NCBI GenBank assembly: GCA_016932735.1
Contig: JAFGCI010000006.1
Location: 127,144 to 191,143 of the forward strand
Direction: 5' to 3'
DNA: 64,000 nucleotides
From: Candidatus Aenigmatarchaeota archaeon
GTDB taxonomy: Archaea > Aenigmatarchaeota > Aenigmatarchaeia > QMZP01 > QMZT01
In this document: positions 2,174 to 43,067 of the stretch, piece after piece
Position numbering within the stretch: the first letter of the stretch is position 1
Layout of the letters: every line of letters starts with the position of its first letter
Position numbers and translations under genes: made by a program
Notes under the pieces: generated by a model
What the model saw: only the letters and a program-made list of their open reading frames with translations
The model's database searches: none
What the model was told of the DNA's origin: nothing

Positions 2174-2731
2174 CTAACGTTTGGATTTTTTCTTCTTTAC
2201 AGGCTTCCTTTTTGTTGCTTTCTTCCTGATTGTTTTTCTCGCAGTCTTCTTCTTTATGACCGGTTTCCTTTTTGCAACCTTTCTTTTTGATGGTTTTTTC
2301 TTTGCGGAAGAAGCTTTTCCTTTAGGCATTCTTATTATGTCAATCTCAGCCATCTCAAGCTTCTCCATGTCTATCGGCTCTTCTTCCTGAACTGCCGGTT
2401 CTGTGTCCGGCTGCTGTTTTTCCCTGATGAATTCCGACCTGACGTTTTGCTCTTTGATTTCGGAATATACCGGTATCCCGCTCTTCAGTTCTGTTGCTTT
2501 TGTTTTCAGAAATTCGGAATCGGATTTCTTGTAGTGCTGGGTTTTTCTTCTGACGTAAAGATGATGCACTATGATAACAGTTCCCCACCCGACGACGAAA
2601 TAGAGAATCCACATATACTGGGCAAAAATGAAAAGGTTTGCAACGCCCAAAACAACTATGAGAACAAGATAAACCAGGAAATGCTTTCTGAACATTGCTT
2701 TTGTTCTGACAAGACTTTCATTAATCGACAT
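2174..2731 (-). CDS. Two-TM membrane protein with acidic linker and Lys/Arg-rich histone-H1-like C-terminal tail
   Basis: F..H...Y...N.....W....W 2TM-like pattern; tail KKKPSKRKVAKRKPVIKKKTARK...; probable start ATG 2731. Confidence 0.7.
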   Translation of the reverse strand: MSINESLVRTKAMFRKHFLVYLVLIVVLGVANLFIFAQYMWILYFVVGWGTVIIVHHLYVRRKTQHYKKSDSEFLKTKATELKSGIPVYSEIKEQNVRSEFIREKQQPDTEPAVQEEEPIDMEKLEMAEIDIIRMPKGKASSAKKKPSKRKVAKRKPVIKKKTARKTIRKKATKRKPVKKKKSKR

Positions 2732-2858
2732 TATAACTACCCCCCATCGAAACAGTGGTTTATTGTTCTTTTGCTGTCTTATAAAATTTTTCTGATTGTT
2801 ATCCCGGATTGAGGCAAACCAATTAAAAATTACTATACAAACAGTTACTGGGTGTTTT

Positions 2859-4202
2859 ATGGAGAGATTGAAGGTAGTTATAATAGGCGCAGCTGGAATG
2901 GATTTCCATGTTTTCAACACGGTTTTCCGGGATAATAAGGACTGCGATGTCAGAGCATTTACGATGGCGGGGGAGCAGAATCTCGGAACCGTCGAAGGTA
3001 AAAAAAGAATCTATCCGCCGGAACTTGCAGGCGTCCTTTATCCAAAAGGCATTCCAATCATTCCCGAAACAGAACTTGAGAATTTCATAAAAAGCGATAA
3101 CATTGATGAATGTTTCCTCGCCTATTCAGATCTGCCTTATCAAGAAGTCATGGCAAAGGCTTCCAAATGCCTTGCCGCGGGAGCGAACTTTTCCCTTATT
3201 TCTCCCAGATTCACCATGATAAAATCCAAGAAGCCCGTAATCTCGGTCTGCGCTGTAAGGACAGGATGCGGAAAAAGCCAGACGTCAAGAAAGGTTGTGC
3301 AGATAATAAAAGACCTCGGCTACAGGGTGGTCGCCATAAGAGAACCCATGCCTTACGGCGACCTTAAAGAGCAGGCATGCATGCGTTTTTCGGATTATTC
3401 TGATTTGGATAAGCACAAATGCACGATAGAGGAAAGGGAGGAGTACGAGCCTTACATAGAGAGGGGCCTTGTAATCTATTCCGGAGTCGATTACGGAAAG
3501 ATTATCAGGGAAGCCGAGAAGGAGGCCGATATAATCGTCTGGGACGGAGGGAACAATGAAGTATCTTTCTATGTTCCGGATATACTAATAACGGTTGCTG
3601 ACCCTCTTAGGCCAGGTCATGAACTGTCATACTATCCGGGAGAGGTCAACGCCAGAATGGCGGATTACATAATTATAAACAAGGAGGATTCTGCAAAACG
3701 GAGGGACATTGACAAGGTTCAGAAAAACATACTCAGAATAAATTCCAATGCAAAGATAATACACGCCGATTCGGTGGTAAGCGTAGATGACCCCGAAGCC
3801 GTGAAGGGCAAGAGGGTCATTGTAGTGGAAGACGGCCCCACGATAACACATGGCGAGATGCCTTATGGCGCGGGCATAGTTGCGGCCAATAAATACGGAT
3901 GCCTTATTGTTGGGGCAAGGGAAAACGCCGTGGGAACACTGAAAGATGTCTTTAGGAAATTCCCCCATATAGGCGATGTGCTTCCTGCAATGGGATACAG
4001 CGACCTTCAGCTGAAGGAGCTTGAGGAGACCATAAATAATACGGATTGTGATGTTGTTCTCAGCGGAACACCCATCGACCTGAGCAAGATAATCAAGACA
4101 GATAAGAAAATCATCAGGGTCCGCTATGACTTGGAGGAAAAGGGCAAACCAGACCTTAAGGATGCTATAAACGACTTACTTGATAAAAGTAACAGGGAAT
4201 AA
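2859..4202 (+). CDS. cpgS: Cyclic 2,3-diphosphoglycerate synthetase-like P-loop protein (COG2403-type)
   Basis: GAAGMDFHVFN, AVRTGCGKSQ, REPMPYG, WDGGNN, VEDGPTITHGEM motifs; start ATG 2859. Confidence 0.8.
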   Translation: MERLKVVIIGAAGMDFHVFNTVFRDNKDCDVRAFTMAGEQNLGTVEGKKRIYPPELAGVLYPKGIPIIPETELENFIKSDNIDECFLAYSDLPYQEVMAKASKCLAAGANFSLISPRFTMIKSKKPVISVCAVRTGCGKSQTSRKVVQIIKDLGYRVVAIREPMPYGDLKEQACMRFSDYSDLDKHKCTIEEREEYEPYIERGLVIYSGVDYGKIIREAEKEADIIVWDGGNNEVSFYVPDILITVADPLRPGHELSYYPGEVNARMADYIIINKEDSAKRRDIDKVQKNILRINSNAKIIHADSVVSVDDPEAVKGKRVIVVEDGPTITHGEMPYGAGIVAANKYGCLIVGARENAVGTLKDVFRKFPHIGDVLPAMGYSDLQLKELEETINNTDCDVVLSGTPIDLSKIIKTDKKIIRVRYDLEEKGKPDLKDAINDLLDKSNRE

Positions 4203-40092: not shown

Positions 40093-41274
40093 ATGGCAGT
40101 AAAACATATTTTTTTCACATCGGAGAGTGTGACAGAAGGCCACCCAGACAAGATATGCGATCAGATAAGCGATGCTATTCTGGATGAATGTCTGAGGCAG
40201 GATCCCCAGTCAAGGGTAGCGGCAGAGACATGCACAAAAACCGGAATGGTTCTGGTAGCAGGTGAAATAACAACAAAAGGTTATGTGGACATCCCAAAAA
40301 TTGCAAGAAATACCCTTAAAGAAATAGGTTACTTACACACTAACCAGGGAATAGAATGGGAATCGTGTGCAGTCCTTGTACATCTGGAAGAGCAGAGCCC
40401 CGACATATCACAGGGGGTCAATGAGTCGGATACAGAAGGGAAAGAAGGCCATGGTCAGGGAGCCGGAGACCAGGGAATGATGTTTGGATTTGCATGCAAT
40501 GAAACCAAAGAACTCATGCCTCTTCCGATTCATCTTGCACACAGGCTCGCAGAGAAACTTGCAGACGTAAGAAAGAAAAAAATAATACCTTATTTCGGTC
40601 CTGATGGAAAGAGTCAGGTCACGGTAGAATATGTAGACGGCAAACCAAAAAGAGTTGATACTGTTGTAATATCAAACCAGCATGAAGATGGGATAGAACA
40701 TAAAAAAATAAGGGAAGATGTAATTGAGAAGGTTATAAAACCCGTTTGTAGTAGCTGGATAGATGAAAAAACGAAATTCTATGTGAATCCAACCGGTAAA
40801 TTCGTAAGAGGCGGTCCATATGCAGATGCGGGTCTCACCGGAAGAAAAATAATTGTAGATACATACGGCGGTATGGGAAGACATGGCGGTGGTGCTTTCT
40901 CCGGAAAGGATCCGACAAAAGTTGACAGGAGCGCAGCATATGCAGCAAGATATATTGCAAAGAATATTGTTGCTGCGGGTCTTGCTGATAAATGTGAAGT
41001 GCAACTTGCTTATGCAATCGGTGTCGCAGAGCCTGTGAGCATATTCATTGATACATTCGGAACCGGAAAAGTTGATGAACAAAAATTATCGGAAGCTGTG
41101 AGAAAAATATTCCCGGTAAGGCCTTCAGACATTCTCAAACAGCTTAATCTGAGGAGACCCATCTACAGAAAAACAGCAGCATATGGTCATTTCGGAAGAA
41201 ACGATCCTGATTTCTCCTGGGAGAAAACCGATAAAAGTGAAGACCTTAAAAAATATTTGATTAATGAAAAATAA
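40093..41274 (+). CDS. metK: S-adenosylmethionine synthetase, bacterial/eukaryotic type
   Basis: [54 protein letters not shown]. Confidence 0.97.
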
Positions 41275-41299
41275 AATTAAAATAAAAAAAGAAGCTGCT

Positions 41300-41431
41300 T
41301 TATTTTTTCTTTTTCTTCTTTGCAGCTTTCTTTTTGACTGGCTTCTTCTTTACTGGTTTCTTTCTAACGGTTTTTCTTTTAACAGCCTTTTTCTTTACAG
41401 TCTTTTTCTTAACTGGTTTTTTCTTTGCCAC
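41300..41431 (-). CDS. 43-aa histone-H1-like lysine-repeat protein, absent from ORF track
   Basis: GTG start with AAGGTGA RBS; MAKKKPVKKKTVKKKAVKRKTVRKKPVKKKPVKKKAAKKKKKK; T-rich run after stop. Confidence 0.8.
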   Translation of the reverse strand: MAKKKPVKKKTVKKKAVKRKTVRKKPVKKKPVKKKAAKKKKKK

Positions 41432-41593
41432 CAAATTTATCACCTTCTAACCATTTCACCTGTTTATTATTTGTTTACCCATAGTATATAAAATTTTCTA
41501 TTTGTATTATGTAGATAAATTTTATTTTTTTAAAAAAATTAGTTGATGTGTATCGCTTTTCATGATATATTGTTTTAGTGCCAATAAATAAAT

Positions 41594-42745
41594 TTATTTT
41601 CCGAAAATTATTTCTATGACATCTCCATCGTTAATTTTCTGTTCCGCGCCGATTTTTCTTTTTGTTTTGTATTCCATTCCACCAATGAATTTGTCTGCCA
41701 TATCGCTATGCACCTTAGATGCCAGTTCTTTTAGAGTTGTGCCTTTCTTAACGAGGAAGACATCAGGTAAAATATTTCCTTTTTTGTCAGTGGCATGATT
41801 TATGTCAGCCACGGGGTATACTGTAACATATCCTAATTTTTCAAAAACCATTTTATTCAGGATCTTCTGAACACCGGTGGTCCCAAATCTTTTCAGGACA
41901 TTTGATCTGATAAATTCAAGTGCGGCTTTCTGTTTCTCATTAAGGTTTCCAGATGCAATCGTAAAATCACTGGAGCCCAGTTTGTAATTGATTAACCCAT
42001 GCTTATCCGCTTCTCGCAAAGCAAGTTCGGAGTCTGCTGAACATGAAATCATTTCTCCACTGCTTTCTCTCACCTTCTCAAAAATTTCCTTTGCCCCGCT
42101 CTTATCTATCTTGTTGGCAGCTATTATAATCGGCTTAGATATTTTTCTCAGCGTTGTTGTAAATTCTCTTTCATCCGGATTATTATCTCTCATCGCTGCC
42201 TTTATTTCATGCTCCTCTATTCCAAGACCTGAAAGATTCTGAGCCAGCATCCTTTCAATCGGCTTTTTCTCCATCTCTGCAATCCTTTTTGACTTGATAT
42301 AGTTTTTCTGGATGATTCCATAAATCCATTCGTCAATTTCATTCTCTAGAATCTCAATTGTCTTTGAGGGGTCCCATTCATTCTCCTTTCCTTCTGCATC
42401 CGTCTTTCCAGATATATCAAGGACATGTATCAGGCCGTCTGCCTGTCTCAGATCATCAAGAAACTGGTTGCCAAGGCCTTTGCCCTCATGCGCCCCCGGA
42501 ACAAGACCTGCTACATCAAGAAGTTTGACCGGAATGTGTCTTACACCATCTACGCATGCAGAGTTCTGCGGGTTACATTTCACTCCCAGCATTTTGCATG
42601 GGCAGGGAGCGGTTATATGAGCAACGCCCTGGTTGGGCTCAATTGTCGTGAATGGGTAGTTGGCAATTTCTATGTCAGCCAGTGTGGCTGATTTGAAAAA
42701 TGTGGATTTACCCGAATTTGGAACGCCGACAAGACCTATTAGCAT
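41594..42745 (-). CDS. ychF: YchF/Ola1-family Obg-like GTPase/ATPase (archaeal type) with TGS domain
   Basis: GVPNSGKST, NYPFTTIEPN, DVAGLV, GLGNQFL, NKID; start ATG 42745. Confidence 0.93.
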   Translation of the reverse strand: MLIGLVGVPNSGKSTFFKSATLADIEIANYPFTTIEPNQGVAHITAPCPCKMLGVKCNPQNSACVDGVRHIPVKLLDVAGLVPGAHEGKGLGNQFLDDLRQADGLIHVLDISGKTDAEGKENEWDPSKTIEILENEIDEWIYGIIQKNYIKSKRIAEMEKKPIERMLAQNLSGLGIEEHEIKAAMRDNNPDEREFTTTLRKISKPIIIAANKIDKSGAKEIFEKVRESSGEMISCSADSELALREADKHGLINYKLGSSDFTIASGNLNEKQKAALEFIRSNVLKRFGTTGVQKILNKMVFEKLGYVTVYPVADINHATDKKGNILPDVFLVKKGTTLKELASKVHSDMADKFIGGMEYKTKRKIGAEQKINDGDVIEIIFGK

Positions 42746-42767
42746 GTATTTCAATTGGGTACATGAT

Positions 42768-43067
42768 TTAAATGTTATTGCTTCTCTTTTCCAATGCTTT
42801 TTCGTCTTCCTGTATACCATAAATGAAGAGTTTTATGAGAACAAATAATGCTATTGTACCGACAAATGTGAAATAGTAATATGGTTCAGTGGTCTTGAAA
42901 ATGAATTCAAGCGGAAATACGGGCATCTCGTAGAAACTATGATGGACGTCAAAGAGGAATACAACCGCGAACGAAGCGATAAAGGATATGAAAATGAATA
43001 TGCCGTCGGCTATTAGTTCGTCTCTGCTTATGGGACTTTTTCTAACCTTCTTGATATGCTTTTTCAT
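42768..43067 (-). CDS. Small two-TM membrane protein
   Basis: 99 aa with two hydrophobic helices. Confidence 0.6.
   Translation of the reverse strand: MKKHIKKVRKSPISRDELIADGIFIFISFIASFAVVFLFDVHHSFYEMPVFPLEFIFKTTEPYYYFTFVGTIALFVLIKLFIYGIQEDEKALEKRSNNI

Follow-up and report, generated by a model that had tools for sequence, protein, structure and literature searches.

A small lysine-repeat gene in an aenigmatarchaeal genome, probably a long member of a widespread class of polylysine genes

Can a run of lysine codons lying between two convergent genes be a gene in its own right, and what might so basic a peptide do in an archaeal cell? The question is raised by a lysine-repeat open reading frame (ORF) on the minus strand, at positions 41300-41434 of the window, by which we mean the whole stretch of 64,000 nucleotides (nt) analysed here, from contig JAFGCI010000006.1 of a Candidatus Aenigmatarchaeota archaeon. 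A sequence-only reading of this DNA had seen there a hidden, histone-H1-like pentapeptide-repeat protein, and had proposed it as an overlooked chromatin-compaction protein of an ultra-small archaeal cell. Our analysis indicates that the ORF is very probably a real coding gene and, judged by its sequence, an unusually long archaeal member of a widespread and uncatalogued class of stand-alone polylysine genes. The reading favoured overall, a real gene that is an expanded member of this class and whose product would coat nucleic acid as a polycation, is given a probability of about 0.6.

The anatomy of the gene is set by the following elements:

41300..41434, minus strand: lysine-repeat coding sequence, TTG start at 41434, giving 44 residues (MVAKKKPVKKKTVKKKAVKRKTVRKKPVKKKPVKKKAAKKKKKK), its lysine frame open in all three orthologues
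41485..41499, minus strand: promoter element, B-recognition-element (BRE)-like AGAAAA followed by TATA-like TTTTATATA, read directly
41439..41446, minus strand: Shine-Dalgarno (SD) site AAGGTGAT, complementary to the 16S rRNA 3' end of the same genome (GGATCACCTCCT)
41279..41290, minus strand: oligo-T tract (T7, A, T4), read directly, in the 25-nt spacer shared with the convergent gene metK

The ORF ends in a TAA codon (41302-41300), and the T7 run (41290-41284) starts 12 nt past this stop. Stop and T-run had both been described in the sequence-only reading, as had the SD sequence AAGGTGA, which we located at 41446-41440. The oligo-T tract is likely an archaeal terminator; a scan for bacterial-type terminators found no match, and the archaeal-type T-run is relied on instead. 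AAGGTGAT is a credible ribosome-binding site because it matches the organism's own 16S tail and because SD-like 5-mers are enriched in this genome, preceding 15% of its long ORFs against 2% at a control position. From the usual archaeal spacing between TATA box and start, transcription is predicted to begin near 41462. The 147-nt spacer upstream of the ORF (41447-41593) contains 79.6% A+T, compared with 57.9% for the window, so that the separate AT-rich upstream region noted earlier is confirmed. By its signals, a TATA box and a T-run of its own, the gene is an independent transcription unit, and the neighbours of its class vary over the 103 loci described below; judged by the same sequence signals, it is probably strongly expressed.

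Two further starts are available in the lysine frame, a GTG at 41431-41429 that yields 43 residues (MAKKKPVKKKTVKKKAVKRKTVRKKPVKKKPVKKKAAKKKKKK) and a GTG at 41443, inside the SD site, that yields 47. The 43-residue form has a mass of 5.04 kDa and a charge of about +26.5. It is composed of K25, V6, A4, P3, T2, R2 and M1, with no aspartate or glutamate, in agreement with the earlier description of a protein built almost only of K, R, P, V, T and A. Its repeat consists of seven [KR]3[PTA][VA] pentapeptides followed by a terminal K6, where eight KKK(P/T/A)V-type units had been counted before. Tandem Repeats Finder reports periods of 15, 30 and 45 nt in the coding DNA, and alternation of AAG and AAA keeps the A-runs to 6 nt or less. 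When the 1.18-Mb genome is divided in all six frames into stop-to-stop segments of 25 codons or more, no segment exceeds this ORF in its density of lysine and arginine (17 of 25 residues), and one, an ORF resembling ribosomal protein eL41, equals it.

Which start is used, and how the gene may have arisen, is suggested by a second gene in the same genome. A canonical polylysine gene of 21 residues, (TTG)AAKKKKAAPKKAAKKGKKKK, lies on contig C3 (C3:83139-83204, plus strand; locus L079, 1500-1565), behind the SD sequence GAGAAGGTGG and a TATA-like box. An orthologue of this gene is found in another genome of the genus, G002, on contig C44 (locus L212). The long genes of the two genomes (G000, the window's own genome, and G002) and the canonical genes (C3 and C44) agree without any change in the leader and start block AGAAGGTGnTnnnTTTGGnnGCnAAGAAAAA and in the upstream elements TAATAATA and AAATG. 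SD spacing is identical in long and canonical genes, and TTG-GTG-GCA-AAG of the long gene aligns with TTG-GCT-GCT-AAG of the paralogue, whose product begins MAAKKKK. BLAST also produces cross-matches between the long and the canonical genes. The low-complexity coding part is unusable as a test of homology. Because the leader and start block is invariant at identical SD spacing, the long gene is best read, on sequence grounds, as a paralogue, lengthened by repeat expansion, of the canonical gene of 21-22 codons, with the TTG at 41434 as its probable start and a product that begins MVAKKK. The GTG start named in the sequence-only reading does give 43 residues, but the paralogue alignment makes the TTG, and with it 44 residues, the more probable choice.

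The gene is kept in all three genomes of its genus. Orthologous loci in the two other genomes of the genus, G001 and G002 (GCA_964554465.1), were found by fetching the locus of the upstream GTPase from relatives and scanning it for composition. The two neighbours of the gene, which serve as context only, are the following:

41594..42820, minus strand: Obg-like GTPase (YGR210-like G4, MMR_HSR1 and TGS; Pfam matches), upstream neighbour
40093..41274, plus strand: bacterial-type S-adenosylmethionine synthetase metK (Pfam matches), convergent neighbour

A lysine-rich ORF is present between the GTPase and the convergent metK in both G001 and G002. This gene order is kept only within the genus; the composition scan of relatives' GTPase loci found no lysine-rich ORF beside the GTPase outside it. 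The G002 orthologue, (M)INLVAKKKPVKKKKVVRKKKPVRKKKPVKKKAAKKKKKK, is an ORF of 36-40 residues, and a 36-residue product, starting at the equivalent GTG, has been called at this site. The description of the gene as hidden thus holds in part only. The G001 orthologue carries a different repeat, with units KKKSTT, KKKATA, KKKPAV and KKKTTA, and still keeps the lysine frame. A gap of 72 Ns (L008, 2890-2961) interrupts its repeat, and the frame shifts by one base across it, so its length of about 90 residues is only approximate; the Ns probably mark a collapsed repeat, where the assembly left a gap whose length is an estimate.

Aligned with each other, the three orthologues share a series of blocks: the BRE/TATA block, ATAGAAA(A/C)TT(T/A)TATATACTA, followed by TAATAATA, AAATG, AGAAGGTGAT, TTTGGTGGCnAAGAAAAAA and TAAAGC. 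AGAAGGTG in the SD region is invariant across the three orthologues and the two canonical paralogues. At the 3' end, TAAAGC followed by a T-run is found in G002 as well, and G001 has a hairpin and a T-run. Identity to G002 is 73% in the coding sequence, 74% from TATA box to start and 75% in the GTPase, against 59% in the spacer upstream of the TATA box. The G002 gene differs in length by 21 nt, a multiple of three, and where the ends align without ambiguity there are six substitutions, all of them synonymous and at third positions. Just two of the six frames are open in all three genomes, the lysine frame and an antisense frame with which it shares wobble positions; each of the three genomes has stops in both of the other sense frames. 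Conservation at codon level in relatives, on which the sequence-only reading had made its proposal depend, is therefore present in the genus, and the claim of a real small gene is upheld by the retention of lysine frame, start block and promoter.

These comparisons bear directly on the possibility that the frame is open by chance, as purine-rich DNA without stops in an A-rich, repeat-prone spacer between convergent genes. Low complexity, a tandem period of 15 nt, two antisense frames that are open as well and the lack of protein-database matches would all be expected of such a spacer. Conservation of promoter, SD site and start above the intergenic background would not, nor would stops in both other sense frames of all three genomes, a length difference divisible by three, or a homologous leader and start in a second gene of the same genome. 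The same design of ATG, SD site and stop moreover recurs at more than 100 independent loci among the matches listed in the survey that follows, and we regard a chance frame as very unlikely.

How far does a real gene of this kind extend beyond the genus? Protein searches are a poor guide. A six-frame protein search of 40 relatives returned no match and also missed the G002 orthologue, and this null result is a tool artefact, because low-complexity filtering blinds the search. DNA pattern searches covered the 91 genomes of the order. In a first pass with the motif, 15 of them matched and 12 held stand-alone members of 21-35 residues; a thirteenth was added by a pentapeptide scan. The start-motif pattern gave 19 matches in the genomes of the order, compared with 2 for a reversed-pattern control. 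Examples of these ORFs are MAAKKKKAKKKTTKKKTTKKKKTTKKKAKKKKKK, MAAKKRKAAKKKTTKKKAKKKKKKR and MAKKKAKKKTKKKAKKKTKSKKKKKR, and most members have a TATA-like box, a strong SD site (GGAGGGTG or GGAGGT), an ATG start and a T-rich tail.

Across prokaryotes, one genome per species was scanned with the pattern TGGCNGCNAARAARARR-N18-48-(AAR)4, which returned at least 119 matches (L085-L203). The base before TGGC was left free in this pattern, and it is A, creating an ATG, in 111 of the 119 matches listed. ORFs of 16-49 residues (median 22) account for 103 of these; SD-like motifs precede 87 of the 103, and their products consist of 60% lysine and 29% alanine, with aspartate and glutamate absent. The carriers among the matches listed include, in bacteria, Gemmatimonadota, Acidobacteriota, Myxococcota, many Alphaproteobacteria, Binatia, Chloroflexota, Verrucomicrobiota, Omnitrophota and many Patescibacteria and, in archaea, Pace-, Woese-, Micr- and Hadarchaeota and Methanomassiliicoccales. 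Some of the bacterial carriers have large genomes (Reyranella, Anaeromyxobacter, Gemmatimonadota, Binatia), and, with the same type of stand-alone gene present there, the distribution lends no support to an adaptation of ultra-small archaea.

In the profile drawn from the 103 listed loci, a member begins M-(A/V)-A-K-K-K, with an SD site 5-9 nt before the start, contains at least 55% lysine and no aspartate or glutamate, and has a lysine run before its stop. The window gene has a start of (M)VAKKK or (M)AKKK, 25 lysines in 43 residues, no acidic residue and K6 before its TAA. It thus shares with the canonical MA(A)KKK...KKKK genes the start behind a strong SD site, a lysine content of about 60%, the absence of acidic residues, the final lysine run and a promoter and terminator of its own. 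It differs in being about twice the median length (43-44 against 22 residues), in its valine, proline and threonine spacers, set in a regular pentapeptide where the others have mostly alanine, and in starting with TTG or GTG where the others start with ATG.

Repeats closer to that of the window gene were met in a metagenome scan for KKKPV-type repeats. Among the matches listed are many stand-alone (KKKxV)n genes of 32-107 residues, for example MAKAKKTAKKKPVKRKAVKKKTVKKKTVKRKTVKKPVKRKAVKKKKR, and the same repeat is also found as a tail on other small domains. The genus-specific start block, searched as an exact pattern in metagenomes, gave no matches.

Several further features of the class were observed in passing. 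Of the 103 stand-alone MAAKKK ORFs, 74 end in TAA, 28 in TAG and none in TGA; the remaining one runs off the end of its contig. Many of the hosts are high-G+C bacteria, in which TGA would be expected to be frequent. Two archaeal members of the order (G004 and G010) do use TGA. One polylysine ORF (L070; G061:C102:2425-2532) ends in a run of cysteines, MAPKKKAKKKAPKKKAAKKKKPAKKKTSSCCCCCR, a sequence that suggests a possible lipidation or metal-binding end. In the metagenomes, a recurrent small protein combines a conserved N-terminal domain of about 40 residues, MGKI..KN..RK.GYLYYVDGQGNVCEAKMARGG, with a (KKKxV)n tail (L232, L247, L249, L275, L287, L297, L299, L317, L326, L332, L333), and a second recurrent type has the form MxLPKTPKQ...SLKKQL...KKK before such a tail (L225, L240, L255, L260, L282, L285, L303, L320, L334); neither type has a significant PHROGs match. 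On DPANN-like contigs (L253, L257, L241, L306, L226, L233), stand-alone (KKKxV)n genes adjoin a gene 31-45% identical to C8:73045-73450 of the window's own genome, beside which no lysine-rich ORF of at least 25 codons is found. In L253 and L257 this gene stands just downstream of the (KKKxV)n gene, begins MEEECIFC and is probably of the HIT family.

The class also helps to decide on which strand the gene lies. A plus-strand ORF of 75 residues at 41264-41491 had been recognized in the sequence-only reading as an antisense shadow of the lysine gene, and it does lie there. If it, or its shorter version at 41334-41450, were the real gene, the product would be a phenylalanine-rich hydrophobic protein, read through from metK, just downstream of which it lies on the same strand. 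One antisense frame is indeed open in all three genomes, and through the common wobble positions the substitutions are synonymous there too. No start codon is conserved and there is no SD site, however; the 3' end of the ORF falls within the conserved SD block of the lysine gene, every conserved signal points in the direction of that gene, and 93% of the class loci listed have an ATG directly before GCN-GCN-AAR in the lysine sense. Since the complement of AAR codons has no stops, the open antisense frame is an arithmetical shadow, and a gene on the plus strand is the least probable of the explanations considered.

A translated lysine frame would not by itself require a peptide with a role of its own, since short leader ORFs rich in one codon are a known bacterial device. 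By analogy, translation of the lysine codons might serve as a sensor of lysyl-tRNA or of stalled ribosomes and regulate a gene nearby. In line with this, a passage of PMC9207662 describes poly-lysine stretches as slowing ribosomes. The locus offers little for such a mini-ORF to regulate: no gene follows it in the same direction; what follows is a T-run and, 25 nt away, the stop of the convergent metK. The A-runs are kept to 6 nt or less, and the members of the class have diverse neighbours and terminators of their own. We consider this explanation extremely unlikely, and a protein-coding member of the polylysine class is retained.

What is the protein, then? Family models gave no answer. In a Pfam-A hmmscan the lysine-repeat protein matched no family at E<=10, including Hc2/HctB (PF07382) and linker histone (PF00538); NCBIfam gave no match, and no PHROGs or PDB sequence family was found. 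The sole PDB match, to a lysine-rich region of Streptomyces SigA, has E=10 and was set aside as noise. A search for homologous proteins gave 141 candidates, none at E<=0.01, and full-text literature searches, whether for sequence strings or for topics, came upon no account of genes of this kind. The label of a histone-H1-like protein can therefore be kept for the style of the molecule, a lysine-repeat polycation in the manner of H1 tails, Hc2 and AlgP, but not for family membership, as no H1 or Hc2 model matches.

The closest known counterparts in style are Hc2, AlgP of Pseudomonas and BpH1 of Bordetella, DNA-condensing polycations with lysine-rich repeats of the pentapeptide type, whose repeat number varies between close relatives. 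With these the window protein has in common lysine-rich pentapeptides, alanine, proline, valine and threonine spacers and essentially no acidic residues. Variation in repeat number is likewise met here within one genus (36-40, 43-47 and about 90 residues). Hc2, AlgP and BpH1 are far longer, however, at roughly 165-350 residues against 43-47, and the window gene is archaeal, has a TATA-type promoter, is a paralogue of a 21-residue gene and is known from sequence alone. The C-terminal tail of eukaryotic H1 is also rich in lysine, alanine and proline (with valine and threonine), disordered and strongly cationic, and the tail-only H1 of trypanosomatids shows that such a tail can work alone, without a globular domain. 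Compared with H1, the window protein lacks the winged-helix globular domain and S/TPKK motifs and is much shorter; the resemblance is compositional, and an evolutionary link is not likely.

On these analogies we propose that the gene would be separately transcribed and translated into an acid-free peptide of 43-44 residues, almost certainly disordered and built of KKKxV pentapeptides, which would bind nucleic acid non-specifically by electrostatics. Charge neutralization and DNA compaction might follow, in the manner of H1 C-terminal tails, chlamydial Hc2 and protamines, and total charge would count for more than exact sequence. That the product is a nucleic-acid-binding polycation is, by analogy, likely; that DNA or chromatin is its main target is tentative, at somewhat less than even odds.

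An RNA target is the chief competitor. The peptide could be associated with the ribosome, sitting in rRNA or on tRNA or mRNA like eL41/eS32, bS22, bL37 and bTHX, tiny basic ribosomal proteins that were themselves long overlooked. These, which annotation was slow to recognize, are similar in size (24-45 residues) and likewise extremely basic, and the strong translation signals of the window gene recall them, as does its upstream neighbour, an Obg-like GTPase of a 50S-binding type. They are, however, arginine-rich and of fixed length and sequence, whereas the window protein is a lysine repeat that is over twice as long in one genome of the genus as in another, without the arginine and aromatic residues typical of the tiny ribosomal proteins. 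No ribosomal protein model of Pfam or NCBIfam matches it, no ribosomal-protein gene recurs beside the 103 class members among the matches listed, and the linkage to the GTPase is confined to the genus. A separate candidate for eL41/eS32 is moreover present in the same genome, a short ORF at C11:30270-30362 (minus strand) with the sequence ...GKKRKKSKIKTHKLKKRRKKMRHKSK. A general polyelectrolyte is favoured over a fixed structural slot because the repeat evolves rapidly within the genus, in both number and type and without loss of frame, and over a ribosomal slot in particular because the composition is extreme, only charge is conserved, a short paralogue coexists and the eL41-like ORF is separate. 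We judge a ribosome- or RNA-associated role quite unlikely, though it is the strongest of the competing explanations.

Whether a DNA-coating polycation would fill a gap in the chromatin of this genus was considered from its other nucleoid proteins. The window's own genome encodes a tail-less histone of 69 residues, as does each of the 21 relatives tested; the single histone gene of the genome (C3:87213-87395) is located about 4 kb from the canonical polylysine gene. Alba (PF01918) was not detectable in G000, G001 or G002, and tblastn with the Alba proteins of relatives was also negative in G000. Each of the ten other genera tested in the family does have Alba. A comparison with histone and Alba, which the sequence-only reading had suggested, thus came out divided: all three genomes of the genus lack Alba, but histone is present, and Alba and polylysine genes coexist elsewhere in the order. 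No chromatin gap is demonstrated, because of this coexistence, and the loss of Alba is no more than circumstantial. A replacement of Alba by polylysine is kept only as a coincidence, weak and confined to one lineage. No spermidine synthase could be detected in either G000 or G002, and the pattern among relatives is patchy; a replacement of polyamines by polylysine is no more than a candidate, given this pattern and the presence of the class in large-genome bacteria as well.

Several observations weigh against the reading that we favour. The start codon, TTG or GTG, is not ATG; low-complexity sequence weakens the arguments from homology and alignment; and the argument from synonymous sites fits the lysine frame and the wobble-sharing antisense frame alike. 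The genome already encodes a histone, and in most relatives tested in the order polylysine genes occur together with Alba (for example in G038, G086 and G040). No gene neighbourhood is conserved across lineages among the neighbours of the 103 listed members and the metagenome loci; recurrent neighbours are bound to single lineages, such as ribonucleotide reductase in Reyranella, an NtrC-type regulator in Eisenbacteria and Binatia, SecA in Saccharibacteria and the probable HIT-family gene on DPANN-like contigs.

If the peptide were made at the level that promoter and SD site suggest, a +27 polycation could be significant in neutralizing and packing the DNA or RNA of this archaeon. To our knowledge, nothing similar is listed in any catalogue of archaeal nucleoid proteins. 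Taken by itself, the locus adds only modestly to knowledge: it is a further archaeal member of the class, unusually long and clearly related to a paralogue. The class, however, marks a systematic blind spot: searches based on HMMER and BLAST missed even the near-identical G002 orthologue, and the family was recovered by DNA pattern searches only. As the class apparently spans many bacterial and archaeal phyla, a single characterization of DNA versus ribosome binding would inform hundreds of lineages. A bolder proposal, which we hold to be somewhat unlikely, is that the window gene encodes an archaeal 'mini-protamine', expanded from a 21-codon MAAKKKK gene in an Alba-less genus and acting as a major counter-ion of the nucleoid (or of RNA) beside the single histone, and that the MA(A)KKK...KKKK genes form a cross-domain family, among the shortest conserved protein-coding genes, which would be absent from Pfam, NCBIfam and the literature because they are missed by gene callers, low-complexity filters and tryptic proteomics alike.

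Lysine-rich segments are found on larger proteins of the same genome too. A protein with two hydrophobic segments, encoded at 2177-3010 of the window (minus strand), has a long lysine-rich C-terminal tail, ...KKKPSKRKVAKRKPVIKKKTARKTIRKKATKRKPVKKKKSKR, and similar tails are carried by a MoxR-like AAA ATPase at its N terminus (C1:23881-25155) and by eL19 at its C terminus (C2:23946-24560). As these three proteins all carry them, lysine-rich segments are a general device of this proteome. Lastly, the upstream GTPase ORF encodes 408 residues from its first ATG, and the orthologues in G001 and G002 begin at the equivalent of Met26 (MLIGLVGVPNSGKST, 383 residues), for which reason the true start of the GTPase, by sequence comparison, is probably at 42745, and the segment 42746-42820 (minus strand) would lie ahead of it.

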